From positions 93,101,569-93,165,568 of the forward strand of contig NC_057718.1 of NCBI RefSeq assembly GCF_004010195.1: a DNA stretch of 64,000 nt, written 5' to 3'. The notes under the pieces were generated by a model. The model saw only the letters and a program-made list of their open reading frames with translations. It was not told the DNA's origin and searched no databases. Positions 9,005 through 36,271 of this stretch are shown here, in pieces (the first letter of the stretch is position 1; each line of letters starts with the position of its first letter). Source of the stretch: Chiloscyllium plagiosum (taxonomy: Eukaryota). The position numbers and the translations under genes are program-made.

Positions 9005-9442
9005 GTAACATCACCATTGTTCCGGAGGACTATAGAGTTACTCTCTCTCTTTGGAGAGAGAGAGAGATAGAGAGACAACTAGTGGTGAGTTTAACCTGAG
9101 GGTCACCATGCCTCAGGAGAAGGGCAAGGTTAAGAAGGTGGGACCTTCACAGTGCCCAGAACAGGAATTGAACCCATGACATTGGCAGCACAATCCAGCT
9201 GTCCAACTAACTGAGAGAAAGTGAGGACTGCAGATGCTGGAGATCAGAGTCAAGAAGTGTGGTGCTGGAAAAGCACAGCCAGTCAGATAGCATTCGAGAA
9301 GCAGGAAAGGGGACTTTTCAAGCATAATGAAGAGCTTGTGCTGAAAACATTGACTCTCCTGTTCCTTGGATGCTGCCTGACCAGCTGTGCTTTTCCAGCA
9401 CCACACTTTTTCACTCTGTCCAGCTAACTGAGCGAACTAACC
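9005..9442 (-). mobile_element. tRNA-derived SINE (family not assigned), interrupted by a family A element
   Basis: Reverse complement of the SINEs at 18405 and 19038 (gtgaccctcaggttaaac..caccactagttgtctctc). Confidence 0.65.
9216..9415. mobile_element. Family A fold-back PLE-derived element with 17-bp TSD
   Basis: Arms gtgtggtgctggaaaagcacagc and gctgtgcttttccagcaccacac are reverse complements; TSD ctgtccaactaactgag 9199-9215 / ctgtccagctaactgag 9416-9432; hammerhead cores decayed. Confidence 0.85.
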
Positions 9443-14349: not shown

Positions 14350-15249
14350 ATAGAACATAGAACATAGAAAAAATACAGCGCAGTACAGGCCCTTTGGCCC
14401 TCGATGTTGCGCCGATCCAAGCCCACCTAACCTACACTAGCCCACTATCCTCCATATGCCTATCTAATGCTCGTTTAAATGTCCATTAAGAGGGAGAGTC
14501 TACCACTGCTACTGGCAGGGCATTCCATGAACTCACGACTCGCTGAGTAAAGAATCTACCCCTAACATCTGTCTTATACCCACCACCCCTTAATTTAAAG
14601 CTATGCCCCCTCGTAATAGCTGACTCCATACGTGGAAAAAGGTTCTCATGGTCAACCCTATCTAAACCCCGAATCATCTTGTACACCTCTATCAAGTCAC
14701 CCCGAAACCTTCTTTTCTCCAATGAAAACAGCCCCAAGTGCCTCAGCCTTTCCTCATACGATCTTCCTACCATACCAGACAACATCCTGGTAAACCTCCT
14801 CTGCACCCATTCCAGTGCCTCCACATCCTACCTATAGTATGGCGACCAAAATTGCACACAATACTCCAGATGCGGCCGCACCAGAATCTTATACAACTGC
14901 AACATGACCTCAGTACTCCAGAACTCAATTCCTCTACCAATAAAAGCCAGTACGCCATATGCCTTCTTCACCGCACTACTTACCTGNNNNNNNNNNNNNN
15001 NNNNNNNNNTTTTGTATCATCCGCAAACTTGCTCACCCAACCTTCTAGCCCCTCCTCCAGGTCATTTATAAAAATGACAAACAGCAATGGTCCCAAAACA
15101 GATCCTTGCGGAACACCACTAGGAACTGCACTCCAAGATGAACCTTTACCATCAACTACTACCCTCTGTCTTCTTCCAGCCAGACAATTCCTAATCCAAA
15201 CCTCCAACTCACCCTCAATGCCATACCTCCGTATTTTTTGCAGTAGCCT
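14350..15249 (-). mobile_element. Young CR1-type LINE 3' portion (23-N gap at 14987-15009)
   Basis: (catagaa)n tail; [13 protein letters not shown] and SKFADDTK (ORF 14980); RFRGDLIEVYKM (ORF 14486). Confidence 0.93.
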
Positions 15250-16461
15250 AAGGCTTGATTGGCTTGATTTCAGTCTGACTTTACTCTTAATTGAAGTGTT
15301 TCTTCACAAAACATTTTTTTCCTTTCTCTGTACCTTCACTTGTTGCATTGTTTCAATGTGGAGCCCAGGTTAGGTCGACTGCCCCTGCCTAATCTTTGAG
15401 ATATTCTGAGTTAAAGCAGTGGAGCAGAATTTTCACCCTCAATTGCAGGTTCTTACTCCCCAACGTTCATAGCATGCAGAAATCTATGGTGTTGAAATGC
15501 AGGATTCTTTTGAAAAACCAATTGACCTTCCAGCTGAGCTGCACAGGAACCTAGATGGAAAGACAATGGATCTGCTGCTTGAAGAATGGCAGTTTTAATG
15601 GCTTCCTGACAGATTTTCAGTAGGTGCCACCTCACTGATATGCTGCACCCTTCAACCCTATGACCATCCCCAACCCCAACTCCAACCTGAAACTTACCCC
15701 TAACCCCTCCTCAGATTTAGGGGTAGAATCTCTATTATATCTGCATGAGTGGAAGAAGGGTCTACTCTACCATTCATTATGCTAGCTGTCTACAGGAACT
15801 GTGTAGTGTGCAAATCAGTTGGTATTTGTTAGAAAAAGCCAGTCACCTTCATTAAAAGGTGTTCGCTGTGACAGCTTTTCATCAAATATTTACTCCATCT
15901 GCTTTCTCTGTCGCCCTGTCAAACTCAACACCAGCCAATCGTGGAATTCATCGAGAGTATCAGGGAGACTTAACAATATTTCCACCACTTTCAGTTTGTT
16001 TGTCTTTCAAGCAGCAGCACTATTGAAGCACTTTATTTTTTGGCGTGGAGTCAACCCTCGGTCTAATTTTGCCCCAGTGTGCAAAGATTTGTCACACACT
16101 GTTGGAGTTGTAAAGAGCACTTTGTGAGGTGGCATTGTTCTTGGCGTAAGGGCACAGTGCTTTACCTGAGAGGTCACTTTTCTATCTTTTGCAAGGAGGC
16201 GGGAAATCACAGGTTTATCTGGCATGCTTATTGAAAACTCCTAAAACATGTGTACAACTGCGTGCCTAATCTGAGACGTCCTGTGAGGATCTTGTTTAAT
16301 ATCCTAAACAGTCACCTAACTCCTATAGAAGGTACATAGTGAATCAAATCTGCACATTATTCTATTGGACTGGATAGGTTTTCCAATAGTTGTTACTCTA
16401 AATTCTGTTTCTTTGGTTCATGTTTCAACTGTAATGTTTAAATAAATTGTGTTTTGCTTAA

Positions 16462-16982
16462 AGCCAAGTGGTCGCAGGTAGATAGGATAGTGAAGAAGGC
16501 GTTTGGTATGCTTTCCTTTATTGGTCAGAGTATTGAGTACAGGAGTTGGGACATCATGTTGCAGCTGTACAGGTCATTGGTTAGGCCACTGTTGGAATAT
16601 TGTGTGCAATTCTGGTCTTCTTCCTATGTGAAACTTGAAAGGGTTCAGAAAAGATTTACAAGGATGTTGCCAGGGTTGGAGGATTTGAGCTACAGGGAGA
16701 GGCTGAACAGGCTGGGGCCGTTTTCCCTGGAGCATCAGAGGCTGAGGGGTAACCTTATAGAGGTATACAAAATTATGAGGGGCATGGATAGGATAAATAG
16801 GCAAAGTCTTTTTCCTGAGGTCGGGGAGTCCAGAACTAGAGGGCATAGGTTTAGGGTGAGAGGGGAAAGATATAAAAGAGACCTAAGGGGCAACTTTTTC
16901 ACACAGGGGGTGGTATGTGTATGGAATGAGCTGCCAGAGGATGTGGTGGAGGCTGGTACAATTGCAACATTTAAGAGGCATT
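16462..16982 (+). mobile_element. CR1 fragment lacking its 3' tail
   Basis: ORF 16454-17008 LVRPLLEYCVQFWS...ATFKRH stops abruptly at the duplicated segment. Confidence 0.9.
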
Positions 16983-17753
16983 CCTCACTTTCTCCGTTTC
17001 AAACATAAGCCCTTCATCAGGAACATTCTTTGACTCTGCCTCAAATATCAGTATATTGTTCCTTAAATAATGGGCCCCAAACTGTTCACAGTATTCCAGC
17101 TGTGATCTAAGTAATGCATTGCACTGTTTTAGTTAGACCTCCCTATTTCTTTAATCCATTCACCTTTGAAATAAAATGTAACATTCCATTTGCCTTCCCT
17201 TTTACTTGCTGAGCTTGTACACTAGTTGTTTTTTTCTGATTTATGCACTAGCACTCCAGTTTCACTGAGGGTCAACATCCTCAATAAGATACACTTGGGA
17301 CACATAGGAATCAATAAGTGCGGAGCCAGGGCTCTACCATCAGTGTGGTGGGGCTGGGATCTCCAAGAAGATTGAAGACATCATAGTGGTTGCACTATTC
17401 ACAGGCCTGAACAAGCAGAGCCACTGATCCCTAATATCTTCCCCATCAGACCAGGGGAACGTGAGAGAACTGACCTTTTTATGTTTGTCAGGTATTCTTA
17501 CCGTATTATAAAACTAAGGATTGAGGATGCTGGAAATCTGAAACAAATAAAGTTTCTGTAGACATGCAGCAGGTCTGACAGCATGTGCGTATAGAATACA
17601 AACTAAATGTTTCTTGTCTGTGACCCTTCCTCAGAACTAGAACCAGCTGGGAAAAAGCAGTACTGAAGCTGATGTCGGGGGTGGGGAATTGGGGGAGCCA
17701 TGTGAGCAATAGGTGGAGAGAGTCCTGTCACGAAATTGGTTGCTTTCAGTATA
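16982..17753 (+). repeat. 772-bp inverted duplication, copy 1 (partner 34978-35749)
   Basis: Base-by-base reverse complement of 34978-35749, about 6 substitutions and no indels by manual comparison. Confidence 0.95.
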
Positions 17754-17848
17754 TAGGAGAAAGTGAGGACTGCAGATGCTGGAGATCAGAGCTGAAAATG
17801 TGTTGCTGGAAAAGCGCAGCAGGTCAGGCAGCATCCAAGGAGCAGGAG

Positions 17849-17884
17849 AATCAACGTTTCGGGCACAAGCCCTTCTTCAGGCTT
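17849..17884 (-). ncRNA. Minimal hammerhead ribozyme motif (family A)
   Basis: CUGAAGA-A-GGGC-UUGU-GCCC-GAAA-CG-UU on the minus strand. Confidence 0.7.
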
Positions 17885-17982
17885 CTGATCTGCAGTCCTC
17901 ACTTTCTCCTCGAAGATTTTAACCTACTGCGAATCCTCTTGCAAGGATGCCTTCCTTGAAGAAGCTCTCTTCCTCCCTCTAC

Positions 17983-18018
17983 ATTCCTGAAGAAGGGCTT
18001 GTGCCCGAAACGTCGATT
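17983..18018 (+). ncRNA. Minimal hammerhead ribozyme motif (family A)
   Basis: AUUC-CUGAAGA-A-GGGC-UUGU-GCCC-GAAA-CG-UC-GAUU; complete core, predicted cleavage after 18014. Confidence 0.75.
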
Positions 18019-18404
18019 CTCCTGCTCCTTGGATGCTGCCTGACCTGCTGCACTTTCACAGCAAGAAAAGGTTAGGGTCTAAGCTACCTTCTCAAAATAT
18101 TTTGAAGTGGGGTCTGGCCTGGTTCATGATGCTTGTCTGCTTATTCTGCTGTTGAAACAATGGCAAAGTTCATAGATTCGTGAGGACTGATGTATTTTGG
18201 CTGATCGTTGAACCAAAGCTAAATGCATCACAACTCACTGGATGGGAATTCTATTGGACATTAAAACTCAGCTGGGCATGAAATTAACATTGAACCCAAA
18301 CTCAGTAGTTTCTTGAAAGGCTGGGATAAGTTAAAATTTGCCCCACTCTTTCCACTTGCATTATCCACGAAGCTGCTTAGCTTTGTGACATCAATTGAAA
18401 TGAG

Positions 18405-18590
18405 GGTCGGTTAGTTCAGTTGCCAACAGTGACGGTTTAATTCTTGCACTGGCTGAGGTTACAGTGTAGGTCACACCTTTCAACCTCCCCTGAGATGTAG
18501 TGACTCTCAGGTTAAACTGCCACCACTCGTCTCTCTCCATGAAGGAGTGACCCTATAATGCTTTGGAGGCTACGATGACTTTAGACTTAA
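18405..18590 (+). mobile_element. tRNA-derived SINE (family not assigned)
   Basis: ggtcggttagttcagttg head and gtgactctcaggttaaac body, shared with 19038 and 9005. Confidence 0.6.
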
Positions 18591-19037
18591 AACATACGCC
18601 ATATGGTAGTCGGAATAAATGAGGAAAAAACTCGTGAAAGTCCGGTGACAATGAATTGACAACCCATTTGACTGTAACTTCCAGGGACTGGAGGAGAGGG
18701 AGAAATCCATCACATGCATTTTACCGAAAATCAATTTCAACCCTGTCACTTATTTCTTCCCCATGCTACTCCTTCAAGCTGATAATGTATGAGTTTTGTT
18801 CTATACTGAAAAAAAAACATTCATTCAGATTTGGTAAGTTAAGGGGAATTGCATTTTGCAACATACAAGTGTGCAACAATTTCATAAATACATTTATTTT
18901 AAATACTTGTTTCTAATTATGCCTATGTTATGAATTGTGGTTACTTGTTTAATTTGTATCACCAACTCAAGTCTGCACCTACTGCCATAATAAGTTTTCA
19001 GTAGCTTGTCATCTACCGACCTGGGACTTGTTTAGGC

Positions 19038-19240
19038 ATTGGTTAGTTCAGTTAACTGGGTAGCTGGTTTACAATGCAGAGTAGTGCCAGCAGTGCAGGT
19101 TCAATTCCCACACTGACTAAGCTTACAATGCCTTCTTAATCTAACCCCTCACTTGAGGTGTGATGACCCTCTGGTTAAATGCACCACCAGTTGTCTCTAC
19201 TAAGAAAGCAGTCAACTGCGACTATGATGACGTTACCTTA
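19038..19240 (+). mobile_element. tRNA-derived SINE (same family)
   Basis: A-box-like ggttagttcagttaactgg and B-box-like ggttcaattcc, plus the shared body. Confidence 0.65.
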
Positions 19241-21202
19241 ATGCAAGCATATTTCTTTGCAATCTGCAACAGCCTGTCAGGGAACAAGATCACTGGAAAT
19301 GTGTACGAACCAGTTGACTAATAGCTTGTAGAGGGAAGTGTTGCCAAGCTGATGGAGATTGTAGGTTAAATTTTATCTTTAGTTGAAAATAAGTATATTC
19401 TGTGTTTCCTTTTATGTGAGGGTAACATCTCAAGTTGTTTCAAATAAAGAAGACAAGATGGCAGCAATGTTAGGAGAATGAAAATGAGAAACCATGTGCA
19501 GATTTGGCAGAATAAGCAGGACAATGTTATTTCTTAAAATCCATTTCCCCCAACAATGTTAGTGAGTGGATAAGTGCCCTGAATTGGAAAGCCGTGCTGT
19601 ACTTATGTCAATCATAAAAGTAGAAGAGAAGGCAATAAATGTTGCAAAATTTGCCTTAGCTTGCACAATATTACCACTAAACTGACTTGCACAGATAACC
19701 TGACCCTCACCTGTATAACGATGGGCCAAAGGTCAGCATCTTAGCATAAATAGAACACGCTAAGCTTCTGGGTCTATCTACAATGTAACGTGTTCTTAAT
19801 CAGGAAACGTGTGAATCTATCCAATACTGACTGGGACATTCAATTAAAATTAAGCCATTTCTACAGAGTGCATCAATCAGTGGAAGGTGAACTAAGCTCT
19901 TACTGTCTTGGGAACTTTGGAAGATGGAATGCTTGATTAGTGAGGGGTGTGTGCATGACAAATGGATCCTGACAAATTGTCTGACTTCCGGAAGAAGCTC
20001 TCTATTCTGAGTTTCCTCACAGGAAATGGGTTACCATGAGGGCAGAGGGAAAGCTTCAAGCATGTCCTCAAAGCCTCCACGGTTCATGGGAACTTCTTGC
20101 CCAAAGCCACCCAAACCAGAGAAGAAACATCTGCGATGGTGCTAACTATTTCAAGCTCCTCATACAGGCCACAGCAGAAGCCAAGCACAAACTACGGAAA
20201 GAACACGCAAAAACCTGAACATCCCACCCACCTGCCCTGGCAGACATGACCTGCCTCACCCATGGCAGGAGGTTAGGGATCCAGCCTTAGACTGCTTAGT
20301 CAACTCACTACCCATAGTCCCAAGAGGAAATAAAGTCATCCTTAATCCTGAGGGACCAGCTCCAGAAGAAACACAAATGGATCGATCTTGTTGAACTGTT
20401 GACATTGTCTAGTGAGTGGCTGTAAGGTAAAAATCACTGCTATTTTGAAACTAAAACTACAAAGGCGAATTTTCTCGTGAGGTTCTCCTGCTAACATTTT
20501 GTAGCTTCAGTAGCAACATCATCCATTCATGAAAACAGAGCTTCCGTCAGGTTTCCGTTGAGGTTACAGCAGCACAGTCCAAGAAGCCTTAAGGAAGATT
20601 ATTTCGCACCACATGAAAAGTTCTCCTTCACCATTATCATCAATGCAACATGTGGGTAACTGGAAATCTGATGGTAGAGTGGAACAAGGACATCTGCTAT
20701 TACTTGGTAGAGTAGGATAATTAATCTCAGATCACTCTTGGAACTGAACTCTTTGCAAACCTTCTTTCCTACCATCTTATAACTGTACTGCATGAGTCAC
20801 AAAACCGTTTGGAAGAGAGGTTGGGTTCACAGTATGGTATTAGTTAGCTGATCTCAACTTGCCAATGATTTTGGTGATGCAATTGGCATCCACACTTTTT
20901 GGGCGGGTTAGGGGGAAAAAAATCAGCTGGAGTTCCATAATTGGACTACAATGGAAGTCTGAAGTTGAATGTGAGTATTTGTGGTCACTGAAATGAAGCT
21001 GAGGACAGGCTTAACTATAATGTTGCATGCTACAAAAATTGCTTTCATTCAAAAGTACATAATTGGCTGTAACACAGCCAATGAAAAGTGCTACATGAAT
21101 TCTAGTCTTTCTTTTCAATGTCAGCTAGCTAGTCACAAGTATCCAAACTCTCAGAAACAGGTCAGTTGAAGTGTTAGAGGGATGTAGGTACCTGCAGGTA
21201 AG

Positions 21203-21540
21203 ACGATAAGACCATAAGATATCGGAGCAGAAATTAGGCCATTCAGCCCATTGAGTTTCCTCCATCATTCAATCATGGCTGATAAGTTTCTCAACCCCAT
21301 TCTCCTGCTTTCTTCCCATAACCCTTGGTCCCTTTGATACTCAAGAACCTAGCTATCACCGTCTTAAATATCCTCAATGACCTGCCCTTACAGCCTTCTG
21401 TGGTAATGAATTCCATAGATTCACCACTCTCTGGCTGAAGACATTTCTCCTTACCTCCGTTCTAAACAGTCTTCCCTTTACTCTGAGACGATGCCCTTGG
21501 GTCCTAGTCTCTCCTACCAATGGAAACATCTTCCCAAGAC
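21203..21540 (-). mobile_element. CR1 3'-end fragment
   Basis: (gaccataa)n tail and ggagcagaaattaggccattcagccc. Confidence 0.8.
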
Positions 21541-21595
21541 TTGACACCTTCAGAGGGTGAGGAGGTGAAGGAGGGATGGGGAGGTACTCCTGCTA

Positions 21596-22045
21596 CAGTC
21601 ATAGTCATAGAGTTATGCAGCACGGTTAACAGACCCTTCGGACCAAATTGTCCATGCCAGTCAGATACCTAAACTAATGTAGTCCCATTTTCCGGCATTA
21701 GGCCCATATCCCTTTAAACCCTTCCTGTTCATATATCCATCCAGGTGCCTTTTGAATGTTGTAGTTGTACCAGCCCTCCACTACTTCCTCTGGCAGCCTC
21801 TTCCATACACGCACGAAAAGGTTGCCCATTAGGTCCCTTTTTTCACCTTTCCCCTCTTGTCTTAAACCTATACCCTCTTGTCTTAAACCTATACCCTCTA
21901 GTTTTGGACTCCCCTACCCTGAGGAAAAGACCTTGCCCGATTCACCCTCTCCATCTCCCTCGTGATTTTATCAACCTCTATATGGTCACGCCTCAGCTTC
22001 CAATGCTCCAGGGAACATTAGGCCTGAACCTATTCAGCCTCTATG
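21596..22045 (-). mobile_element. CR1 3'-end fragment with 21-bp tandem duplication
   Basis: CR1 tail; ccctcttgtcttaaacctata occurs twice at ~21852-21893. Confidence 0.85.
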
Positions 22046-22123
22046 TCATGTTAACCCAACAGGGGCCATCGTAGCTGTGGGCTTCAGGAATCTGTTCAGT
22101 CACTGGTTGTTGCAATATTGACA

Positions 22124-22460
22124 TATAGAGTCATAGAGATGTACAGCATGGAAACAGGCCCTTCGGTCCAACCCGTCCATGCCGACCAGATATCCCAACC
22201 CAATCTAGTCCCACCTGCCAGCACCCGGCCCATATCCCTCCAAACCCTTCTTATTCATATACCCATCCAAATGCCTCTTAAATGCTACAATTGTACCAAC
22301 CTCACCACATCCTCTGGCAGCTCATTCCATACATGTACCACCCTCTGCGTGAAAAAGGTGTCCCTTAGGTCTCTTTTATATCTTTCCCCTCTCACCCTAA
22401 ACCTATGCCCTCTAGTTCTGGACTCCCCGACCCCAGGGAAAAGACTTTGTCTATTTATGC
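22124..22460 (-). mobile_element. CR1 3'-end fragment
   Basis: agagtcatagagatgtacagcatggaaacaggcccttcgg. Confidence 0.9.
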
Positions 22461-22587
22461 TACTTCTTTGAGATACTTTGCTGGATTGAGGAATAAATTA
22501 TAAAGTCAGATTTTTTTAAAATTTGGAATTTTGATTCCTTACCTGCTGTGAATGGGATATGTATTAAAGCATGAGGTGTGTTGGGGA

Positions 22588-24675
22588 AATGCACCAAAAT
22601 GCAGCTCCTCACATTTATCTGAATTAAACTCCATCTGCCACTTCTTAGCCCATTGGCCCATCTGGTCAAGATCCTGTTGTAATCTGAGGTAACCCTCTTC
22701 GCTGTCCACTACACCTCCAATTTTGGTGTAATCTGCAAACTTACTAACTTTACCTCTTATGCTCGCATCCAAATCATTTATGTAAATGACAAAAAGTAGA
22801 GGGCCCAGCATCGATCCTTGTGGCACTCCACTGGTCACAGGCCTCCAGTCTGAAAAACAACCCTCCACCACCACTCCCTGTCTTCTACCTTTGAGCCAGT
22901 TCTGCATCCAAATGGCTAGTTCTCCCTGTATTCCATGAGGTCCAACCTTGCTAAACAGCCTCCCATGGGGAACCTTGTCAAACGCCTTACTGAAGTCCAT
23001 GTAGATCACATGTATTGCTCTGCCCTCATCAATCTTCTTTGTTACTTCTTCAAAAAACTCAATCAAGTTTGTGAGACATGATTTCCCATGCACAAAGCCA
23101 TGTTGGCTATCCTGAATCAGTCCTTGCCTTTCCAAATACATGTACATCCTGTCCCTTAGGATTCCCTCCAACAACTTGCCCACCACCGACACCAGGCTCA
23201 CTGGTCTATAGTTCCCTGGCTTGTCTTTACCGCCCTTCTTAAACAATGGCACCACGTTTGCCAACCTCCAGTCTTCCGGCACTTCACCTGTGACTATCGA
23301 TGATACAAAGATCTCAGCGAGAGGCCCAGCAATCACTTCTCTAGCTTCCCACAGAGTTCTCAGGTCAGGTCCTGGGGATTTATCCACCTTTACCCATTTC
23401 AAGACATCCAGCACTTCCTCCTCTGTAATTGGACATTTTGCAAGATGTCACCATCTATTTCCCTCCAGTCTATGTCTTCCATATCCTTTTCCATAGTAAA
23501 TACTGATTCAAAATATTCATTTAGTATCTTCCCCATTTTCTGTGGCTCCACACAAAGGTCGCCTTGCTGATCTTTGAGGGGCCCTATTCTCTCCCTAGTT
23601 ACCTTTTTGTCCGTAATATATTTGTAAAAACCCTTTGGATTCTACTTAATTATATTTGTCAAAGCTATCTCATGTCCCCATTTTGCCCTCCTGATTTCAC
23701 TCTTTAGTATACTCCTACTTTCTTTATATAATCTTCTCAGGATTCACTTGATCTATCCTGTCTAAACCTGACATATCTTCCTTCTTTTTCTTAACCAAAC
23801 CCTCAATTTCTTTAGTCTTCCAGCATTCCCTATACCTACCAGCCTTCCCTTTCACCCTGACAGGAATGTACTTTCTCTGGATTCTTGTTATTTCATTTCT
23901 GAAGGCCTCCCATTTTCCAGCCGTCCCTTTACCTGCGAATATCTGCCTCCAATCAGCTTTCAAAAGTTCTTGCCTAATAACGTCAAAATTAGCCTTTTTC
24001 CAAGTTAGAACTTCAACTTTTAGATCTGGTCTATCCTTTTCCATCACTATTTTAACACGAATAGAATTATGGTCGCTGGCCCCAAAGTGCTCCCCCACTG
24101 ACACCTCAGTCACCTACTCTGCCTTATTTCCCAAGTGTAGGTCAAGTTTTGCACCTTCTCTAGTAGGTATATCCACATACTGAATCAGAAAATTGTCTTG
24201 TACACACTTAAGGAATACCTCTCCATCTAAACCTTTAACACTATGGCAGTCCCACTCGATGTTTGGAAAGTTAAAATCCCCTACCATAACTACCCTATTA
24301 TTCTTACAGATAGCTGAGGTCTCCTTACAAGTTTGTTTCTCAATTTCCCTCTGACTATTTGGGGGGGGTCTATAATACAATCGCAATAAGGTGATCATCC
24401 CTTTCTTATTTCTCAGTTCCACCCAAATAACTTCCCTGGATGTATTTCCAGGAATATCCTCCCTCAGCACAGCTGTAATGCTACTCCCCCTCCTCTCTTG
24501 CCTCCCTTTCTATCCTTTCTGTAGCATTTGTATCCTGGAACATTAAGCTGCCAGTCCTGCCCATCCCTGAGCCATGTTTCTGTAATTGCTATGATCCTAA
24601 CCATGCCCTGAGTTCATCTGCCTTCCCTGTTAGGCCCCTTGCATTGAAATAAATGCAGTTTAATTTATTAGTCCT
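22588..24675 (-). mobile_element. Long CR1 ORF2 remnant (APE endonuclease and RT)
   Basis: VVMVGDFNFPNIEW (ORF 24114), SDHNSI (ORF 23724); 291-aa ORF 22539-23414 with [28 protein letters not shown] and FADYTK. Confidence 0.95.
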
Positions 24676-26896
24676 ATATATACTGTTTCAGCTTCTTGTT
24701 GTACAGTGTGTGTGAACCTTGGACCTGTGCACCATCCCTGAAAATGGCAGAATGAAGGAGACTGCCTTGGTAGATTTGAAAGAATGGATGCTCAATGTTT
24801 GAGAAATTGCCCTAACTGTTGTCATCCAAGGGAATCCTGGGGAGGATACTGAGCTGGATGGTCAACCATGATCATATTAGATGGTGAAGCAAACTGGAAG
24901 GGGCAAAAGACCTACTCCTGCTCCTATTTTCTATCTCTGCTAAAAGTGATTTTAGTCAAAAATAATAGTGTCCTGATAAGAGGACAAATACAAACTTTGC
25001 AATGGCATAGAATGAGACTATGTTCAGTCACTTAAAAGGAAAACTCAGGCAACTAAAGTTGAGAGAGAGATTGAGAAAATATTGCAGACTAAAAAATGTA
25101 ATGGGTCAATGTCTTGGGATACTGGATAAAATATGACTCTGCATGTCTCTGAAATAATCTAATGATGTAAACTCAATGTAGCAGCAAGGTCATAATCAAC
25201 CAACAAAAAAAAGTTAACTTGGGCATAAGCTCTAAATATTTGACAAGAACATGGGAGTCATGAGCAGAAATTGACTTTATCACCAATAGAATACTGGCCC
25301 CTGGAGTAATAAATCTAATGTTCTGGAACATATTGGTTCAGCAGATGGTTCTCTGGCGGGAGAACACTAACTCAATGTTTGCAACAGATGTCAATACGTC
25401 TTCACATGATTTCAAGTTCAATCACGCAAAAGTGATAAAAATATCCCTTTAATCAAAATAATCTGAAAGAAAGTCAGCATCTGATTTCACTTGGTTCAAA
25501 CAGCTGAGATGTGAAGAGCAGGGCACCTGAATTGGTCACACCTCAGCTTAAACGTGTTAGTAGTTTGAGCCCTGATTCGTGCAAGGGAGGTGACTCTCGA
25601 TGTGTTTGAGAGAACTTCTATTTACTTAGCACTATTCATTTTTTGGAACGATGAATCTCTGGTGCAGCAGGGTAATATTTGTGTACAGTAAAATCTCACA
25701 ACAAGCAATGAGTTTCATGACAAGCCAATCAGTTTGTTGGTGGCTTGCTTCATTAATAAATGCTCACCGGAACACCAATTTTTGCTCTTAGTTAAATGGC
25801 TTACACCTCACCATTTATGTAGTAATTGCATAAGGCTACCATACATAAGGTGCTCAGAGCCATCAATCATGCATGTTTTACAGAGGCAAAATTCCTGAAC
25901 CACAACCGACCCATTGTTTCAAATCAGGCATTACTGTTAATGCTGATACATAAGTTACATTGTAATAATCAGATACTGTTTTATTATCTCTTTGGTGTAT
26001 AGTCCTTTAGATGTGGTATTACAATCCACCCTCCCTGCTACCTCATTTGATGTAAATGACCATTGATTTGGAAGCAGCACAATAAAGAAAATCTGTAATT
26101 TCTTTAAAAAGCTGCATGGAATCTTTTTTTTCTGGAAGTACAATTGAGAAGGGAAATTACTTCAATTTTAAATGGCTAAATGTAGTTTTATTGGATAAGA
26201 AAAGCTCATCCATTTGACCTGACAATCCTTGACCTGGAAGCAGTACCAACAGACAGGAAGTTCCGAAAGAAGCCAGATAGCTGGCAGGTTAAGGGTGAGC
26301 TAAAAGCAGAAGAGCTGGTGTGTGAAGGCTCAGTTGCAGGCACAAATAGAAAGCAGACAGAAAGCAAAATAGGAGCACAGAGATTTCTTGTGAGGGGAAA
26401 AGCGAATTGATTTCAAGAAGACGTCAGTTTTCCTATCTTGGTCAGAGTATGCATCTTGTGGGCCAGATTAAGGATGGGCTGTGAGGTTGTATATGGTGCC
26501 ACGTTTGTGTGGGAGTAATTTAGATGCTTAATACTGCACCTTTGTTATATCAATTACTGAAAGTGAAATTTATCTTTCTATTTAATGTATCATTTTAGCA
26601 TTAATACATAGTTAATTTGTGTTGGCTCCGATTTTTGCTAAAATTACAAGAAGTAAAAATCCTGTTGGTAATTTCTTCACGTGGGAAATTGGGATTAGCT
26701 ATTTTGATTTCGAAGTCCTGGTGGGATCCTAACAAAGACAATTGTCAAAACACTGCATTTGGAATATTGCCTTTTTAAATTTTGTGACATTACACAGAAG
26801 TTTAAGTCTGCCACTTGGCTCAAGGACAGGTGAAGAAAGCAAAGATTTTCACATTTCCCCTTCTCCCTGTTTTCCATTAAAATAATCATAATTATT

Positions 26897-27058
26897 AAAT
26901 TAGATTTCCTACAGTGTGGAAACAGGCCCTTCAGCCCAACCAGTCCACACCGACCCTGCGAAGAGTAACCCACCCAGAGCCATTTCCCTCTGACTAATGC
27001 ACCTAATACTATGGGCAATTTAGCATGGCCAATTCACCTAACCTACACATCTTTGGAC
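26897..27058 (-). mobile_element. HE1-type SINE 3' part
   Basis: Matches 3440-3585. Confidence 0.85.
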
Positions 27059-27403
27059 AATTAATAGATCGTGCCTGAAAGCAGACATAACCACACGTAC
27101 CTGTAATTTAATAAGTCATTCCTTGGTAAAGTACTTTAATATTTTTAAACTGGAAGTTGCCAAAAAAAAGTATATACATTATTTAAAAGTATGAGCATGT
27201 GAACGTCATGCACTTAACTCTTCTCAATACCTTAATCCTATTCAGAGAATTACATTTTTAAGCTGCAGGTGACTATTGAACTAAAACATTAAGCCACACA
27301 CAACATTCAGATAGGGGTAACAGTGACACTGATCCTATTGAAGGTGATTTTAAAAATATAATTGATTGGACGAGGGTGTCCCTGGCTAGGGTATTCATCC
27401 CTA

Positions 27404-27672
27404 GTTAAAATCCCTACAGTGGCCCATCAAGTCCATACAGACCGAAGAGCAGCCCAACCAGACCGGGAACCCTGCATTTCCCATGGCTAATCCATCTAGC
27501 TTACACATCCCTGTGCACTATGGGCAATTTAGCGTGGCCAATCCACCTAACCTGCACATCTTAGGACTGTGGACTAGGAGAACACACAAACTCCACATTG
27601 ACCGTCAGCGGATAGGTGGAATCGAACCCAGGCCCCTAACGCTGTGAGGCAGTGGAGCTAACCATGGTGTCA
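27404..27672 (-). mobile_element. HE1-type SINE (diverged)
   Basis: ctatgggcaatttagcgtggccaatccacctaacctgcacatc...gctgtgaggcag. Confidence 0.8.
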
Positions 27673-27674
27673 CC

Positions 27675-28410
27675 TTTGAGAAGATGGTTGGGAGTAGCCT
27701 TCTTGACCCTTGTTGTCCATTTGTTACAGGTAAACCCACTATACCATTAACGAGGGAATTCCAGGATTTTGGCACAGCAACACAGAAATTATAGTGGTAT
27801 GTTTCACAGTCAGGACGGTGAGTGGCTTGGACGGGGTCTCACAGGGATGATGTTCCTATGTCTGGGCAGAAATGACCATGCCTTTGAAAGGTGCTGTCTA
27901 AGGAGGCTTTGTGAATTCCTGTAGTGTATCTTGTACACACCGCTGCTAATAAGAGGCAATGGTGGAGGGAATGGAAGTTTGTGCTTGTGCTGCCGGTCAA
28001 GAAGGCTGTTTTGTTCTGGATGATATCAAACTTCTGAAGTGTTGTTGGAGCTGCACTCATCCAGGCAATCACACTCCCGACTTATGCCTTGTGGTGGTAG
28101 GTAGCCTTTGGGGAGTCAGGAGCTGCAAGCCTATGACCTGCTGTTGTAATCAGAGTATGTACATGGTTAATCCAGTTCAGTTTTGGTCAATGGTAACTCT
28201 CAGGTTATTGATAATGGAGATTTCAGTGATGGTAATGTCATTGAATGTCAAGGAGCCAGGTTAGATTCTCTCTTGGTGAAGATGGTCACTGCCTAGCACT
28301 TGTATGGCTGAATGGTACTCTCCTGGAATGTGTCCAGGTCTTCCTGCATTATTGGAATGAGTTGCTTCAGTATCTGAGGAGTTGCAAATGGTACTGAACA
28401 TTGTTCAACT
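27675..28410 (-). mobile_element. Old non-LTR retroelement 3' portion (CR1/L2-like)
   Basis: ORF 27839-28072 AWMSAAPTTLQKFDIIQNKTAFL...HSLHH resembles a LINE ORF2 C-terminus. Confidence 0.65.
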
Positions 28411-28659
28411 TGTTCTGTGCAATCTTTCAACAAAGTTCAAGAACATGTTTGAGATGTTGAACTCTACCACTGCGACTGGGGAAGCACTGAGCCAATGCAA
28501 AGCATTCATAATTCCGGAGCCAGTCTCTCAAAAAGATGGACTGAACAGTTAGAAAAATGATGGAGAACGCAGCTTTCAGACTACATAGCAGCAATAGCTG
28601 CACCAAGATAGTGACAGTGAATCAGATTAATCTGCAATAGCTCTTTTTAATGTTTAACC

Positions 28660-28845
28660 ATGTTGTGGAGGAGCTGGTGTTGGCCTCGGGTGGGCAAAGT
28701 TAAAAATCACACAACACCAAGTTATCGTCCAACATGTTAATTTGAAAGCACTAGCTTTCGAAGCACTGCTCCTTCATCAGGTGGTTGGCTAGTGCATCCA
28801 AATAAACCTGTTGGACTATAACCAGGCATTGTGTGATTTTTAATT
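28660..28845. mobile_element. Family B short fold-back element
   Basis: ttaaaaatcacacaacaccaagttatcgtccaaca ... tgttggactataaccaggcattgtgtgatttttaa inverted ends. Confidence 0.85.
28749..28783 (-). ncRNA. Minimal hammerhead ribozyme motif (family B, best copy)
   Basis: CAC-CUGAUGA-A-GGAG-cagug-CUUC-GAAA-GC-UA-GUG: stem I CAC/GUG, paired stem II, palindromic AGCU. Confidence 0.75.
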
Positions 28846-29829
28846 TTAATGTCGAAGCAATTGTTAAGCCACTCCATCAGTGGAAATTTTGAAATGCTTA
28901 ACAATCCAATGGGAAATATATATTTATGGAAAGAGTGGCCCTGAATTTCAACTGAGTAAATATCACTATATTAATGTGATCCATGTAAATGCTGCAAACC
29001 CAGCAGTGGACCTGTAGATGAACTCCCTTTTCCCAAGAGTAAAGGGATAAATAAATCATTGACACAGTTGTACAGATAGGATTAGCTTCATCGACACCTC
29101 TCAAGTCCTGACAAGTGGTCGAGAAAACTGTATGCGGCTCAAACTGACCTTGGGTACAGCCAGCTTGTTGTCTTTCATGGTTTGGCAGTGGATTCTTCAG
29201 ATCTTGAGGGGGAGCACTCCCTGAACAGACAAATTGCCACGTACGCAACAACCTAAACTCTGCAGCCTTGCCTTTCTCTCTCTCCAAGTGCTGTAGTAGC
29301 GGTAGATGATGCTGTACATCCAAGCACAAACTTCCTGGGCTGATTGCTCTGATTATAAAATATCATTAGACCAGAATTTATATTGCTTCATATATAAACT
29401 GACTTAGCCAGGAAACTCCCAGCAACTCCCTCTGCTGGTGAATGGTGTGACTTCCGAGCAGAACAATTGGCTTTGAGGAAACTTGAGGCCTACTTCTTTG
29501 TGTAGTGCTATTTATTTGCGTCACTGTCAAATAGTCTATTTTCTCACAGACCACGGCCTTAGACACCCGTTTTACATCAGAATGCTGAAAGCGTGTTTGT
29601 TTATATATATTTGGGCCACACACTTTTTGCATTGTCAGCGATTCCACAGCTTTGGCAGGAGTGTGAGTAATAATATCCCTTGCAGCCTCTCAGATATGCT
29701 ACGCCACTCATCAGTATCATGGTTGATCTGCACATTAATTCCATTTTCTTGCCTCTACTCTTTGATATCCTTGTCTAACAAAAAAAAAACTATCTTCCTT
29801 GGTCTTAAAAGCTCAACTTGTTCCAGAAG

Positions 29830-30390
29830 CTATCCTAAATTAATCTCATCCCATTGGCCAGCATTTGCCCCACATCCCTTCCTATTCATATTCCCATCCA
29901 GATACATTTTAAGTGTTGTAATTGTACCAGCATCTACCACTTCCTCTGGCAGTTCATTCCATATACACATCACTCTCTGCAGGAAAAAGTTGCCCTTTAG
30001 GTCCCTTTTAAATCTTGCCCCTCTCACCTTAAGGCTATTCCCTCTAGTTCTGGACTCCCCTATCCTGGAGAAAAGACCTTGATTATTTACCCATCCATGC
30101 CCCTCATGATTTTATAAACCTCTATAAGGTCACCCCTCAGCCTCTGACATCCAGGGAAAACAGCTCAGCCTATTCAGCCTCTCCCTGTATCTCAAACCCT
30201 CAACCCTGGCTAAAAGTCGCGCAACACCAGGTTATAGTCCAAAAGGTTTAACTGGAAGCATTAGCTTTCAGAGCGCTGCTCCTTCATCAGGATGTGTGAT
30301 TTTTAACTTTGTACACCCCAGTCCAACACTGGCATCTCCAAATCCAACCCTGGCAACATCCTTGCAAATCTTTTCTGAACCCTGTCAAGT
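29830..30390 (-). mobile_element. CR1 3' fragment interrupted by a family B element
   Basis: ORF 29830 FKRDLKGNFFLQRVMCIWNELPEE. Confidence 0.88.
30211..30344. mobile_element. Family B element with 10-bp TSD, nested in CR1
   Basis: TSD caaccctggc 30201-30210 / 30345-30354; minus-strand CUGAUGA-A-GGAG-cagcg-CUCU-GAAA-GC-UA at ~30262-30290. Confidence 0.88.
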
Positions 30391-31265
30391 GTTGAGTTGT
30401 AGCGAAGGTCCAGTTTCTGTGCTGTACACCACTCTGATTCTATAATCCACACAGACGTTTTGGGAAAGAATTCTAAAGCTTGACTATCTTACATGTGAGA
30501 AAGTGCTGCCTGATTTCACTTCAGGATGGGTTGCTAGTAACTTTTAGCTGATGTTCTCTTTTCATTTCCAAGGAAAATATGTTTTCTTCCTGTGTCGACC
30601 TTACAACATCTCTTCTGATATTTTGTTTGTCTCAATCAAGTCATCCTTCAATCAGCTATACTCAAGTGAATTAAAACCAAATTTATGTTACCTCTTAGGA
30701 AAATTTGATCCTCTAAGCTGTTGAAGTGCTTTAGTAAATCTACAAGAAAGTCAATATATTTGGGGCAATGTTCAAAAGTGAACAGAAATTTCGAGATAGG
30801 GTTTGACAGAGGCTCCATATAACTGAGAAAGGAATGGTGTGGATTGTTACAATGTAAAGACTGATTTGCAACCACTTGTTCAATCGTACAAACATCCCTA
30901 AACTGTGAACACTGTTGTACTTGCTACCGTTAATGTAAATTTTTTGCAATAGTCACAACAAATCAAAGAAAGGCAAGAAAGTTGTTGAAAATCAAAACAA
31001 GACAGTACTCTTGGCTTTGAGATGACACATTGGCTTTCCAATGTAAAAAACCTTTGTTACAATATTGTTTTCCAAATTTTTCCAATGCACAAGCATTATT
31101 TCTTATATAAGTGATAAAGTATGTCTTCCTGCATTCGTTAAACCTACTCAGGTTGTTACTGAATGCTGTTTTGGCAAATTAGCATTGTGTTGATAATGTT
31201 TTAAGCAACTGTGGTAATTAAAGCAATCAGATGCACCTAAATATATTTTCACAATTATCCTACTT

Positions 31266-31608
31266 CATAGAATCATAGAATCCCTACAGAATGGAAGCAG
31301 GCAATTTGGCCCATCAAGTCCACACCGATCCTTTGAGGAGCATCCCACCTAGACCCACCCCACTACCTGATCCCTGTACCACTTTATTCCCCATGGCTAA
31401 TCAACCTAACCTACACATTCCTGGACAATATGAGCAATTTAGCATTGCCCATCCATCTAACCTGCACATCTTTGGACCTGTGGGAGGAAACCAGAACACC
31501 AAAGAAACCCATGCAGACACTGAGAGAAGCTGCAAACTCCAGAGTGACTTAAGTGTGGGGTCCCTGGTGCAGGGAGGCAGCAGTGTTACCCACTGAAACA
31601 CTGTACCA
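31266..31608 (-). mobile_element. HE1-type SINE
   Basis: (catagaat)n tail, V-domain and tRNA-like head. Confidence 0.85.
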
Positions 31609-32008
31609 TCCAATATTTGTTCATATAATTTGTCTGTACAATGCTTACAATAACAATAGACATAATCATTTCATACCTTTCTATCAGTTCTGCAGCAGCT
31701 GAGATGTAGAACTAGAATGCTTATTGAAGGTGGAGACTATTCAGCCCATTGACCCATACAAACTCTCTGTAAAGCAATGTAGTTGGTCCCAATATGATAC
31801 CCTTCTTTTGTGGCTCTGTAAATCTGTATTCCCTTCCAATTGCTCACCCAATTCCCCTTTGAAAGCCAAACTTGATTCTGCTTCCACCAATCTCTCAGAT
31901 AGTGCACTCCAGATTGTTGTACAGAGTAGGTTTATCCTTCCATTGCCTTTGATCTGTGGCTCAACACTTTAAACCTATGTCCTTTGGATCTTGACCCTAT
32001 AATACTGA

Positions 32009-32112
32009 AGAAGGGCTTCCTGAAGAAGGGCTTATGCCCGAAACGTTGATTCTCCTGCTCCAGCACCACATTTTTCAACTCTGGTCTCCAGCATCTGCAG
32101 TCCTCACTTTCT
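32009..32112 (+). mobile_element. Family A element with 13-bp TSD
   Basis: TSD cctataatactga 31996-32008 / 32113-32125; ends gcatctgcagtcctcactttct(cc). Confidence 0.88.
32017..32050 (+). ncRNA. Minimal hammerhead ribozyme motif (family A)
   Basis: UUC-CUGAAGA-A-GGGC-UUAU-GCCC-GAAA-CG-UU-GAU. Confidence 0.7.
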
Positions 32113-33194
32113 CCTATAATACTGATGGAAACTGTCTGCCTCTGTTATCATTGGTGCATTTTTACAATAGAAGGCTTCTTCTTTCAGTTTACCATTCTGT
32201 TTCCACTTTTTCCATTTAATCTCCCTTTCCTTCTTATCAGGCTACCACATAGTCAAACAATAGCTCAATCTGCTTCAGTAAACATTTACTAAAATCACTT
32301 AAATACATCCCTGCTCCAGAGGTGGTTAATAAAATCACTTAAAGAGCACAGTCACGTGAGTAATTCATTTTTATTGATACAGATGGTAGTCAGTTTGATC
32401 GATTGAATGTTACATGTAGAGAATTGGATGGTTACAGTGTTTGAAATCTAAAAGACTTGATTTTGCTTCCAACCCTGTCAACAGCTCTTCTACTCAAAAA
32501 TTGCTCAATATTTCTCTGTTTAATGGGAGCAGGTGTCCAAGTTGTCTTTCCTGGACTGTCAATTCAATAAACTCAGTAGCTGAGGACTTACTGTTGTCCT
32601 TGGTATTTCATTATCTCTAACCACATTTATTATACTAAATCTAATTTTTTGAATAGAAGTTGTTAATTGACCCAAAGCTAGTTGCTCTATTAAGTTATCA
32701 ATTTCACTCATCAATAACACTATTTATCTCCAGTTTGGCTTCAGGTTTATTTGTATTAAATTTATGCTTTGACATTCCAGGTAATTCTATTTCTTAAAAA
32801 AAAAGGTTACTTGCTGTGTCAATTACCGTTCTCAGGTTTTTAAAAGACCTGAATGTCTCCATCTCGATCTTCTTGGGTGCTGCTGGCAAGGGAGCCTGCT
32901 TGAAATGGTTAGCTTCAAACTGGGCGCTAACTCTGGACACCTGATTGGCACTGCCAGCTATTAAGTAAGTTACGGGACTCGAGTAGGGTCAGCCATGGAA
33001 CTGTGATTCCATGCTGCAGACTGCCCCTCTTATTTCCATCATCTTTCACAGGGAAGGAAATTTTGATGTGGGATAGAGTAGGCAATTGCAGAAGACCAAT
33101 GTCAGCTCATTTTATGAGCTGTTTGTGTTTTAAAGAGATAGCACCATTATGCAGAAGGTGTGTTGTGTTTGAGGATGGGAGAATCCAAGTATTC

Positions 33195-33520
33195 TTAGAA
33201 TCATAGAATCCTTACAGTGTGGAAGCAGGCCATTTGGTCCATCAAATCCACGCTGACCCTCCAACGTGCATCGCACTCAGATCCACACCCCCAACCCTAT
33301 CCCTGTAACCCTGCATTTCCCATAGCCAATCCACCTAGCCTGCATATATCTGGAGACTATGGGCTATTTAACGTGGCAATCCACATAACCTGCATATCTT
33401 TGGAATTTAGGAGGAAACTGGATCACCTGGAAGAAACCCACGCAGATATGGGGAGAATGTACAAACCCTATACAGACAGTCGCCCAAGGGGAGAACCCGG
33501 ATTCCTACCACTGTGCTGTA
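33195..33520 (-). mobile_element. HE1-type SINE (diverged)
   Basis: tagaatcatagaatccttacagtgtggaagcaggcc...gaagaaacccacgcagatatggggagaatgtacaaac. Confidence 0.8.
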
Positions 33521-34977
33521 TTCTTGGTGCCAAGACTTTAAACAATTCTGAGTTTTACTCTGTGCCAGGGAGAGGCCCAGAATCCAAAGAACATCCATAA
33601 GGGTGTATGGTTTTAAATGGAAGCTGTTCAAATGGAATCTCTGTTGGCAACATGTGCTTGACATTTAGGTTATAATAAGTAGCAGAAACACATATGTTAC
33701 AAAATATATTTAATTCACTATTATAATTACTGCATGACATTTCAAATCTGGTCTGCACTATGCATTATTACAGATAATTCATCTGTTACATTGTTAACCC
33801 CTGACAACTAGTTTACAATTTCAACTTTTGTTCTAGTTTTCAATTTAGAAAGTGGTTGAGTGTTGTTATCAGGTATTGTGTACTAGCCACTGAATCATTG
33901 AGATAAGTTGCTGCTACCAATTCTTTACTCTAGATATTTTTTGATAACTCTATGCACATCTCTGGAGCAGGTAAAGCTTGAATCCGGGTCCCCTTCATAA
34001 AGGGGCACAGGCTTGGTCAACTGAGCATTCAGTCTCTGCTTTTGAGATTTTGTTTTCCAACAAGCCTGTTCAGAGATGTTATGACACACTGCTGGGGCAG
34101 GTGGGACTTGAATCCAGGCCTTCAGGCTCAGTGGGAGGGACACTATCATTGCATCAAAGAGGTCCCAATCCTTCTATCTATATTAATCGTACGGGCGTCT
34201 CTATTTACCCGATGGTAGAGGGTAAATCATGAGAGAGTCTTAACAAAAGGAGACATTTGTCTTGTATAACAAGGTATAATCTATTGCATGAAAGCAGGTA
34301 AGATTAATATCTATTAGTTAAGCTTAATAATGTCTGGCTCCAATCAGACTTCATGCTCGACTGTTTCTGCACTAAAAGACTGTAATACATCATTAGTTTG
34401 GGTGAAGCCAGTGCAACTTCAGCAACAACTCTTTGAAAACCATTACCTTATACAACATCTCCCCCGCAAGCATTTCTCCCATGTTTAACATTAATATATT
34501 CATGTATGTAACAAGATTCACATTTACCTTGACTCCATCACTTCTGAAATTGCAGAATTCACACATTTGGATGGTCTGAAGGTTTAGCAATTCTTCCAGA
34601 GGACATTCCCTTTACACTTGGAAACTTGAGGATGATTGACCTCGACTCTGACCCTTTACTAGAAATGATCTGTGAGTCATTACCATCATGATAGTTTCAG
34701 TTAGATTCATTCCAACCAAACATTAGTGGGCGGTTGTTCTGTAATGTGACAAGGTTTGTTTCCTCTGTGCTACCCCTTCATCTATTGTTCTGTTGACTCA
34801 TTGTCATGACATTTCTCTGGACCTCCCTTATCCATGTCCTCTCCCTGGACCCAATTATGGCCATTGTGCACACATGCAGAGAAAACAGTGTAGCTGTATG
34901 GAGGGATTGTTGTTGGTAGACCAGGGAAGAAGTGAAATGTCTTCTTGGAGACTGCAAGCTGTTGAAACTGGGTTGGC

Positions 34978-35749
34978 TATACTGAAAGCAACCCATTTCA
35001 TGACAGGACTCTCTCCACCTATTGCTCACATGGCTCCCCCAATTCCCCACCCCCGACATCAGCTTCAGTACTGCTTTTTCCCAGCTGGTTCTAGTTCTGA
35101 GGAAGGGTCACAGACAAGAAACACTTAGTTTGTATTCTATACGCACATGCTGTCAGACCTGCTGCATATCTACAGAAACTTTATTTGTTTCAGATTTCCA
35201 GCATTCTCAATCCTTAGTTTTATAATACGGTAAGAATACCTGACAAACATAAAAAGGTCAGTTCTCTCACGTTCCCCTGGTCTGATGGGGAAGATATTAG
35301 GGATCAGTGGCTCTGCTTGTTCAGGCCTGTGAATAGTGCAACCACTATGATGTCTTCAATCTTCTTGGAGATCCCAGCCCCACCACACTGATGGTAGAGC
35401 CCTGGCTCCGCACTTATTGATTCCTACGTGTCCCAAGTGTATCTTATTGAGGATGTTGACCCTCAGTGAAACTGGAGTGCTAGTGCATAAATCAGAAAAA
35501 AACAACTAGTGTACAAGCTCAGCAAGTAAAAGGGAAGGCAAATGGAATGTTACATTTTATTTCAAAGGTGAATGGATTAAAGAAATAGGGAGGTCTAACT
35601 AAAACAGTGCAATGCATTACTTAGATCACAGCTGGAATACTGTGAACAGTTTGGGGCCCATTATTTAAGGAACAATATACTGATATTTGAGGCAGAGTCA
35701 AAGAATGTTCCTGATGAAGGGCTTATGTTTGAAACGGAGAAAGTGAGGA
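34978..35749 (-). repeat. 772-bp inverted duplication, copy 2 (probable donor)
   Basis: Reverse complement of 16982-17753; here the family A elements at its right edge continue intact with their TSD. Confidence 0.95.
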
Positions 35750-35978
35750 CTGCAGATGCTGGAGATCAGAGCCCGAAGAAGGGCTCATGCCCGAAATGTC
35801 GATTCTCCTGCTCCTTGGATGCTACCTGACCTGCTGCGCTTTTCCAGCAACACATTTTCAGCTCTTATGTTTGAAACGTCAACTCTCCTGCTCCTCGGAT
35901 ACTGCCTGACTGGCTGTGCTTTTCCAGCACCACACTTCTTGACTCTGACTCTCCAGTATCTGCAGTCCTCACTTTCTT
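35707..35978 (+). mobile_element. Older family A element containing a younger family A insertion (35737-35863)
   Basis: 15-bp TSD cttatgtttgaaacg 35722-35736 / 35864-35878 lies inside the older copy's hammerhead motif. Confidence 0.88.
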
Positions 35979-36271
35979 CTAATATTTACTCACATGGACA
36001 GAAGGATTTTTCTTTGAGGAGAGATTGAGTAGGTTGCATCTGTATTAGTACTATTATTGATGTTGGATGGAAGTGAATCTTTATAAAGTATTCCGTGACA
36101 TTTTAATGGTCAATTATATCTTTAATTAGTGTGTAGTATAATATAAACAAAAGATTATTGTTTAAATAACTCTAGGGTGTTGGTTTCTGGTGATTAATGT
36201 CTAAATATGATGTTATGGTGTACTAAAACCAGCAGAAATTCCCAAACTCAGTTTATAGATGTAGGATGCAG

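Follow-up and report, generated by a model that had tools for sequence, protein, structure and literature searches.

Within a 64,000-nucleotide stretch of the Chiloscyllium plagiosum genome (contig NC_057718.1; hereafter the window), we analysed a 772-bp inverted duplication whose two arms are separated by 17,224 bases. Two of its four breakpoints lie close to the ends of a repeat that is very abundant in public contigs, here called family A, which strongly resembles the end module of Penelope-like elements. The copy near 17 kb derives from the copy near 35 kb and appears to be young. It abuts a resident family A element on one side and a truncated CR1 long interspersed nuclear element (LINE) on the other. 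The two loci are made up as follows.

16471 to 16981, plus strand: decayed CR1 LINE fragment, 75–93% identical to other CR1 copies by BLAST; left breakpoint of the recipient site.
16982 to 17753, minus strand: copy 1, the inserted inverted copy of 34978–35749; 772 bp, 6 substitutions, no gaps.
16982 to 16995, plus strand (element sense on plus): outer 14 bases of the donor family A end, carried in copy 1.
17754 to 17755, plus strand: TA at the boundary between copy 1 and the resident element.
17756 to 17881, minus strand: left arm of the resident family A element, a whole 126-base monomer with a minimal-hammerhead-like core at 17880.
17882 to 17983, plus strand: filler, consisting of the 3′ part of the monomer with a short deletion and then about 74 bases of multicopy element sequence.
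17984 to 18064, plus strand: right arm of the resident family A element, monomer positions 1–79, 75/79 identical to the left arm.
34978 to 35749, plus strand: copy 2, the donor, containing unique DNA, old repeat pieces, one half of a target-site duplication (TSD) and 14 bases of a nested family A element.
35736 to 35865, no single strand: donor family A element with two arms, 35736–35772 antisense and 35772–35865 sense, and a 15-bp TSD at 35722–35736 and 35864–35878.
35710 to 35979, plus strand: older family A copy hosting the donor element.

Copy 1 is the reverse complement of copy 2 over 772 of 772 ungapped columns. A self-comparison of the window puts the number of substitutions, given as about six in an earlier reading of the sequence (the first-pass annotation), at exactly six: 17304, 17526, 17563, 17607, 17731 and 17737 in copy 1 numbering. 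The pair is the longest inverted repeat in the window and the only one above 94% identity among the 25 longest pairs listed; neither of the window's N gaps (10313–10861 and 14987–15009) overlaps either copy. The first 14 bases of copy 1 are the outermost of the donor family A end (35736–35749); 758 bases of donor flank follow, and 2 nt after copy 1 ends another family A terminus begins at 17756. Both termini are as first annotated. The intervening TA may represent non-templated or slipped bases, the remnant of an old TSD, or a variable end of the element; across the family, many contigs begin to match at 17754, 17755 or 17756. The core of the segment (17242–17509) has single-copy depth in public contigs, which rules out a dispersed repeat family, again in agreement with the earlier reading.

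The region 15500–19500 was compared with the public contigs of four of the 22 listed runs: X1 and X17 from the window's own species (organism A), and X5 and X13 from two related species (organisms B and C, respectively). The contig pieces described here are among those listed, and contig depth is a rough measure. In organism B, a 1456-base contig covers 17183–17753 and continues for 888 other letters; in organism C, a 1072-base contig covers 17520–17753 and continues for about 834–836 other letters. The letters past 17753 would correspond to the flank left of 34978, a position that is not a contig break in either species. An organism B contig also covers 16978–17107 and then departs from the window sequence, as the donor junction would. 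Neither organism A run passes 17753; X1 ends at 17730, and the very next base is a site at which the copies differ. The ratio of segment to flank depth is 1.10 in B and 1.18 in C, compared with 1.35 in X1 and 1.4 in X17 (2.2 when one outlier contig is left out). Because the segment appears single-copy and continuous past 17753 in B and C, and deeper in A, 34978–35749 is the donor, and the copy would have arisen after organism A had split from B and C. The contigs running past 17753 also support the direction proposed in the first-pass annotation, from the 35-kb side to 16982. The family A element nested in the donor then predates the A–B split.

The two copies differ by 0.8% (95% interval 0.3–1.7). 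Organism A differs from B by 3.4% (99/2888; 2.8–4.2) and from C by 4.2% (110/2646), and individuals of organism A differ from one another at 7 of 3799 positions in the flanks. On these figures, the copy would be roughly a quarter as old as the A–B split.

At the recipient site, the CR1 fragment 16471–16981 ends where two other CR1 copies in the window continue for 145 and 146 bases. It carries a private 12-base deletion near 16627 and differs by 7% from its nearest paralog in the window. Judged from the paralogs, at least 145 bases of CR1 tail and the element's TSD have been lost. No TSD longer than 6 bases was found for 16982–18064, 17756–18064, 16982–17753 or 16471–18064 (11 intervals tried), the best candidate around the unit being 6 bases with one mismatch. 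TSDs of 13–17 bp are present at three other family A insertions, 9215–9424 (17 bp), 35736–35865 (15 bp) and 32009–32114 (13 bp). The first-pass annotation had described a CR1 cut at 16982 without its 3′ tail, a composite 16982–18063 without TSD, and a target-site deletion; all three descriptions stand, the last by comparison with paralogs. At the left junction, the next base expected from the CR1 family is T, identical to the donor-supplied T at 16982, which gives one exactly matching base and four of five across the join. At the right junction, the cargo ends in CAGTATA, followed by TA and the family A end. The cargo end has no poly(A) tract, and no AATAAA occurs within 200 bases of it (the nearest, at 17546, lies 207 bases upstream), a criterion that is a LINE rule and may not hold for Penelope.

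The surroundings of this site are themselves repetitive. The flanks of the CR1–cargo–element block, 16358–16470 and 18065–18130, are multicopy in public contigs; presumably they are successive parts of one repeat of long terminal repeat (LTR) type, which they resemble, and this would imply that the lost spacer was short. A search of the window for a paralog of the flanks 16340–16475 and 18060–18140, from which the deletion could be sized, gave none that was convincing (one match, at 56316–56385, E = 0.12). At 16357/16358, the contigs of organisms B and C depart from the window sequence (at 16356–16357), that of B continuing for 963 other letters, and both organism A runs read through. The A lineage may have lost or replaced sequence at this position, which lies 625 bases left of copy 1, and this change may belong to the duplication event.

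On the other side of copy 1, the two arms of the resident element differ at 4 of 79 sites, as against 6 of 772 between the duplication copies, and have in common a GTG variant that is absent from the copies at 32019 and 35772. An organism B contig covering 18042–19500 contains 23 right-arm bases connected to the same flank, and the 772-bp segment is single-copy in that species. An antisense arm combined with a sense arm is found in two of the three other TSD-bearing family A insertions, and in contigs of further family A copies an antisense arm is often followed by a sense arm that starts at 17982–17984. Because the right junction is already present in B, the arms share the GTG variant, and two arms are the family's usual form, the resident element is probably older than the copy. 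It seems to be one older, ordinary two-armed insertion, 17756–18064, which lost its left TSD when the cargo arrived. The earlier proposal that neighbouring DNA was captured during the insertion of this element is not supported as the main reading, given the junction in B and the difference between 4/79 and 6/772. As the resident element seems to predate the copy, we do not regard the cargo as a cassette held by both ends of a single element; the cargo does lie between two inward-facing termini, as first described, but these stem from two different insertions.

An alternative is that the left arm, 17756–17881, is new: it would have arrived with the cargo through several template switches, from the CR1 end to donor DNA to element RNA, and been joined to an older right piece. 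In its favour, the arm comprises one complete monomer and matches the end of the donor element at 37 of 37 positions, and the CAGTATA at the cargo end resembles the AT-rich end of the target at the 32114 insertion. However, the GTG variant common to both arms and lacking at 32019 and 35772 is expected from one event, antisense plus sense arms are what a single insertion of this family ordinarily produces, and more switches would be required. We regard a new left arm as improbable.

Both loci have the potential to fold back. At the recipient, a perfect 23-bp stem pairs 17755–17777 with 17888–17910, the break coinciding with the base of the stem, and the predicted DNA fold of 17730–18090 has z = −14.9. 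At the donor, a stem of about 36 bp pairs 35738–35773 with 35941–35977, the end of the host copy; the duplicated segment enters this stem by 12 bases, and the predicted RNA fold of the donor element locus has z = −4.5. The donor element itself lies within the hammerhead core of the older family A copy, with 15 bases duplicated: an insertion into its own kind.

The unit of family A is a 126-base monomer. A pattern search of our own located a hammerhead-like core, CTGA-N-GA with a 4-bp stem II and GAAAC, at 17880 (minus strand), at 17987 (plus strand) and near 32020. This layout is that of the minimal hammerheads of Penelope-like elements, as described in the accessible part of PMC4209133. Rfam returned no hammerhead or other family at gathering level in the window, only two matches at chance level. 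The family A end sits 111 bases from the start-codon position in stem II; in the Poseidon element of Anolis, reverse transcription starts 111–118 bases into the open reading frame (ORF), according to the sections available of PMC11167929. No reverse transcriptase (RT) or GIY-YIG frame for family A occurs in the 64-kb window, the family A end gave 0 matches to metagenome contigs, and a Pfam search of 299 of 331 unmasked frames of at least 45 aa, together with the CR1 frame, found only retroelement domains and two sub-threshold matches. Family A thus strongly resembles a Penelope-like end module and is a candidate member of that group. A preprint, in the part available, classes such units as non-autonomous Penelope derivatives (10.64898/2026.07.22.740005).

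The stretch 17910–17983 is a multicopy continuation of the family A end and contains an ATG that opens the reading MPSLKKLSSSLY. The element's ORF may begin with this reading. From this sequence, one X17 contig extends into the next monomer, which hints at a tandem unit of about 200 bases.

Two of the four duplication breakpoints lie within 15 bases of a family A terminus. With seven termini in 63.4 kb, the chance of this is about 7e-5 under a uniform null chosen post hoc for one event. One break falls 0–2 bases from an end; a further one lies within a second end, at a depth of 14 bases, a stagger of TSD length. Of the five insertions in the window that carry a terminus, only these two elements at the breakpoints have an end that pairs with another (1 in 10, post hoc). 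Element ends and hairpins are therefore confounded as the cause at both breaks. One might invoke an ordinary repair insertion that had its breakpoints near family A ends by coincidence, as this is one event, picked by eye among many windows, in a genome where family A is very abundant; but a figure of about 7e-5 stays small after a few hundred windows, and we hold this explanation to be very improbable. The link to family A drawn in the first-pass annotation is accordingly hard to put down to coincidence, though it comes from a single case. Searches of the openly accessible literature, at the level of listings and the opening lines of abstracts and with most subscription papers outside their reach, gave no report of Penelope ends enriched at the breakpoints of local duplications.

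Our best reading, to which we give an even chance, is that the locus carries a young, non-coding, DNA-templated 'loss plus nearby inverted duplication' that was begun and stopped at fold-back Penelope remnants. The duplication itself is very probably real, with a doubt of about a tenth reserved for mis-assembly. A single copy-and-paste repair in the germ line, in the lineage leading to the window's species, would account for it. The left end of the pre-existing fold-back Penelope-like remnant 17756–18064 would have been the site of a break or a stalled fork, caused either by the family's endonuclease nicking its own end or by the hairpin with its base at 17755. The freed 3′ end would have copied nearby DNA from 34978 to 35749, copying would have halted 12 bases inside the long stem of the nested donor elements, and rejoining would have taken place inside the CR1 at the 1-base exact, 4/5 imperfect match, with loss of the CR1 tail, the old TSD and a spacer.

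This reading starts from the inverted duplication and its direction, the missing CR1 tail and TSD, and the fold-back potential of both sites. The contigs suggest, in addition, that the copy is of recent origin and that the resident element was there before it. From these we infer a DNA template, the cause of the break and the order of the two jumps. Contigs total 2.7–3.7 billion letters per run, and an insert landing at random would come within 20 kb of the donor with a chance of about 1e-5. The donor lies 17 kb away, and the template was therefore probably held in cis and a diffusing RNA is unlikely, even in a window that shows only local copies. The product itself does not tell a DNA from an RNA template, as the cargo has no intron to score. 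The product is non-coding and has no evident function.

Several observations weigh against templated repair or soften its dating. The depth in X17 is uneven, reaching 43 on one flank contig. Both new junctions are on one molecule in the assembly only, and no listed contig spans either of them. Both copies have T at 17590 and 17592 (the 35124–35141 region of copy 2), where G and C stand in the contigs of all four runs, while the base at 17607 groups copy 1 with B and C, and copy 2 with X1 and X17. The pattern at 17590–17607 fits no single tree and needs a short gene conversion or a mosaic assembly consensus; a date based on six differences is therefore soft. X1 and X17 differ from copy 1 at 5/628 and 5/642 sites, near the 6/772 that separate the copies, and an artefact of two alleles therefore stays alive. 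The recipient underwent a second change, the one 625 bases left of copy 1, and the presence of the CR1 in B or C is not established by contigs. The size of the deletion and the original junction bases are judged from paralogs, not from an empty site. The 23 element-side letters of the organism B contig at the resident element fall short of a 31-letter bridge rule and are silent on the age of the left arm. Finally, human class 2 templated insertions have themselves been argued to be RNA-derived (in the sections available of PMC5110952), and the geometry here, with a primer at an element end and a cargo consisting of an element 3′ end plus its downstream flank, fits a read-through RNA equally well.

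One alternative is mis-assembly, in which a second allele of a single-copy segment would have been placed in a gap between two repeats. The scaffold carries N gaps, tandem and inverted Penelope structures trouble short-read assemblies (PMC8557442), and the 0.8% between copies is near what separates individuals within the segment; the T bases at 17590 and 17592 in both copies and the lack of a listed contig across a junction point the same way. On the other hand, an overlap-based join would need more than the 1–4 bases that the junctions share; contigs do not break at 34978 in B and C, and neither organism A run passes 17753; the stop of X1 at 17730 adjoins a copy-separating site; and depth is raised in organism A only. 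The artefact thus has a small probability.

Another alternative is reverse transcription. Here, a Penelope protein would nick the resident element end, prime on a nascent minus-strand transcript that extends from the donor element into its flank, stall in the stem and join the product to the CR1 with a deletion. Copy 1 does read as an element 3′ end followed by downstream flank (14 + 758 bases), the presumed start of the complementary DNA abuts the terminus at an AT-rich TATA, and the coincidence of breakpoint and terminus (about 7e-5) counts in its favour. In the portions available of the respective reports, Poseidon cuts AT-rich DNA in its own pseudo-LTR (pLTR) and starts without homology (PMC11167929), Penelope elements move host DNA in Adineta (PMC3846280), and some L1 insertions combine target deletions with templated genomic pieces (PMC11702581). 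Against this route, the available part of PMC11167929 places the start in vitro at a fixed stem-loop of the element RNA and requires the first 172 nt of the ORF, whereas here it would lie 758 bases out in host sequence, from a donor that has monomer pieces only. There is no new element arm and no TSD. No transcript is known (the runs were found by a search for DNA, and those listed include no RNA run), and no convincing host-gene domain was found in the 299 of 331 frames of at least 45 aa. The templated pieces associated with L1 are mostly shorter than 250 bp and at most 15 bp from the site, as far as the accessible parts of PMC11702581 and 10.1101/2024.08.27.596794 go. We consider this route unlikely, if still the strongest of the alternatives.

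Of the hallmarks of 3′ transduction, a downstream flank in the sense of the source element is present; a TSD and a poly(A) tract or signal are absent. The first-pass annotation had proposed 3′ transduction or template switching. In its diffusing-RNA form, this is hard to reconcile with a landing 17 kb away in a multi-gigabase genome; in its nascent-RNA form, it fits the orientation. A more general version, which we likewise find doubtful, is that Penelope proteins revisit old ends of their own kind, nick them and copy host sequence in cis, from nascent RNA or from DNA, over tens of kb without leaving a new element copy. If so, the very many dead Penelope ends of this genome would be standing hot spots for local duplication with deletion, and the present case a clean fossil.

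Three further explanations were rejected, and a fourth is unlikely. A simple inversion with staggered breaks would leave the CR1 tail to the left of 34978, where it is absent, and B and C appear continuous there (the 17-kb middle was not compared with a relative). Recombination between the two family A ends, which are in direct orientation, would leave either a deletion or a copy of the same orientation. Twin priming from a single donor RNA does not agree with the resident right arm, which is only about 90% like the donor element. Joint insertion of CR1 and cargo by one template switch is unlikely given the decay of the CR1 piece (private 12-base deletion, 7% divergence).

Elsewhere in the window, young CR1 pieces at 10128–11063 and 14674–15250 (95–97% identical) are each interrupted by an N gap, which makes for a weak spot of the assembly at least 1.7 kb from copy 1. 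A second repeat family with a hammerhead-like core, CTGATGA-stem-GAAAG, occurs on the minus strand at 28780, 30290 and 63354. The segments 63271–63398 and 63700–63827 form a 128-bp inverted pair; another, of 143 bp (55565–55707 and 55990–56132, 90% complementary, 282 bases apart), encloses a family A fragment at 55893–55950. A decayed LTR-retrotransposon pol lies at 4630–6811 (minus strand), with protease-like, RNase H and integrase Pfam matches, only one of which is above the cut-off.

On its own, the duplication is a neutral scar in non-coding DNA, and its value is that of a dated example with an identified donor. The field has yet to settle how Penelope-like elements complete their insertion and whether their old copies give rise to structural change (PMC8557442 and, in its available sections, PMC11167929). 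If family A ends turned out to be over-represented at the breakpoints of young local duplications, either the endonuclease or the shape of the fold-backs would be a sizeable source of structural variation in these genomes.

Among systems in which transposable elements make the ends, the following comparisons draw on the accessible portions of the cited reports. In Adineta vaga (Arkhipova et al., 2013; PMC3846280), host sequence likewise lies beside pLTR-like ends, and some insertions lack a TSD and have microhomology. However, the cargo there is held between whole pLTRs and the unit has a TSD, whereas here it lies between a 14-base remnant and an apparently older element, with no TSD. Poseidon PAc of Anolis carolinensis (Frangieh et al., 2024; PMC11167929) shares the hammerhead-like core, whose stem II contains the start-codon position, and its reverse-transcription start at 111–118 compares with a family A end at 111; the window, unlike PAc, contains no RT or GIY-YIG frame for family A, and 3′ transduction of a flank is not described in that portion of the report. 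L1 templated insertions (PMC11702581; 10.1101/2024.08.27.596794) likewise involve the joining of ends made by a retrotransposon, with deletions and with copied DNA from nearby, but they come with a new L1 copy, and the 772-bp case has no new element.

The closest parallels to templated repair come from rearrangements, again as far as the passages available describe them. The 'local 2-jump' class, with 472 instances (Li et al., 2020; PMC7025897), has the same one deletion, one nearby inverted extra copy and intact donor; its two inverted junctions on one chromosome have a counterpart here that is phased in the assembly only. The present case differs in being germ-line and sub-kilobase, in a shark-like genome, and in having breakpoints at Penelope-like ends, a topic not addressed in those passages. 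Class 2 templated sequence insertions (Onozawa and Aplan, 2016; PMC5110952) share the lack of TSD and poly(A), the deletion and the intact donor, as well as junction microhomology (here imperfect, on the left) and extra bases (here two, on the right). Their donors are distant and experimental inserts measure 73–414 bp, whereas here 17,224 bases separate the arms and the insert is 772 bp long.

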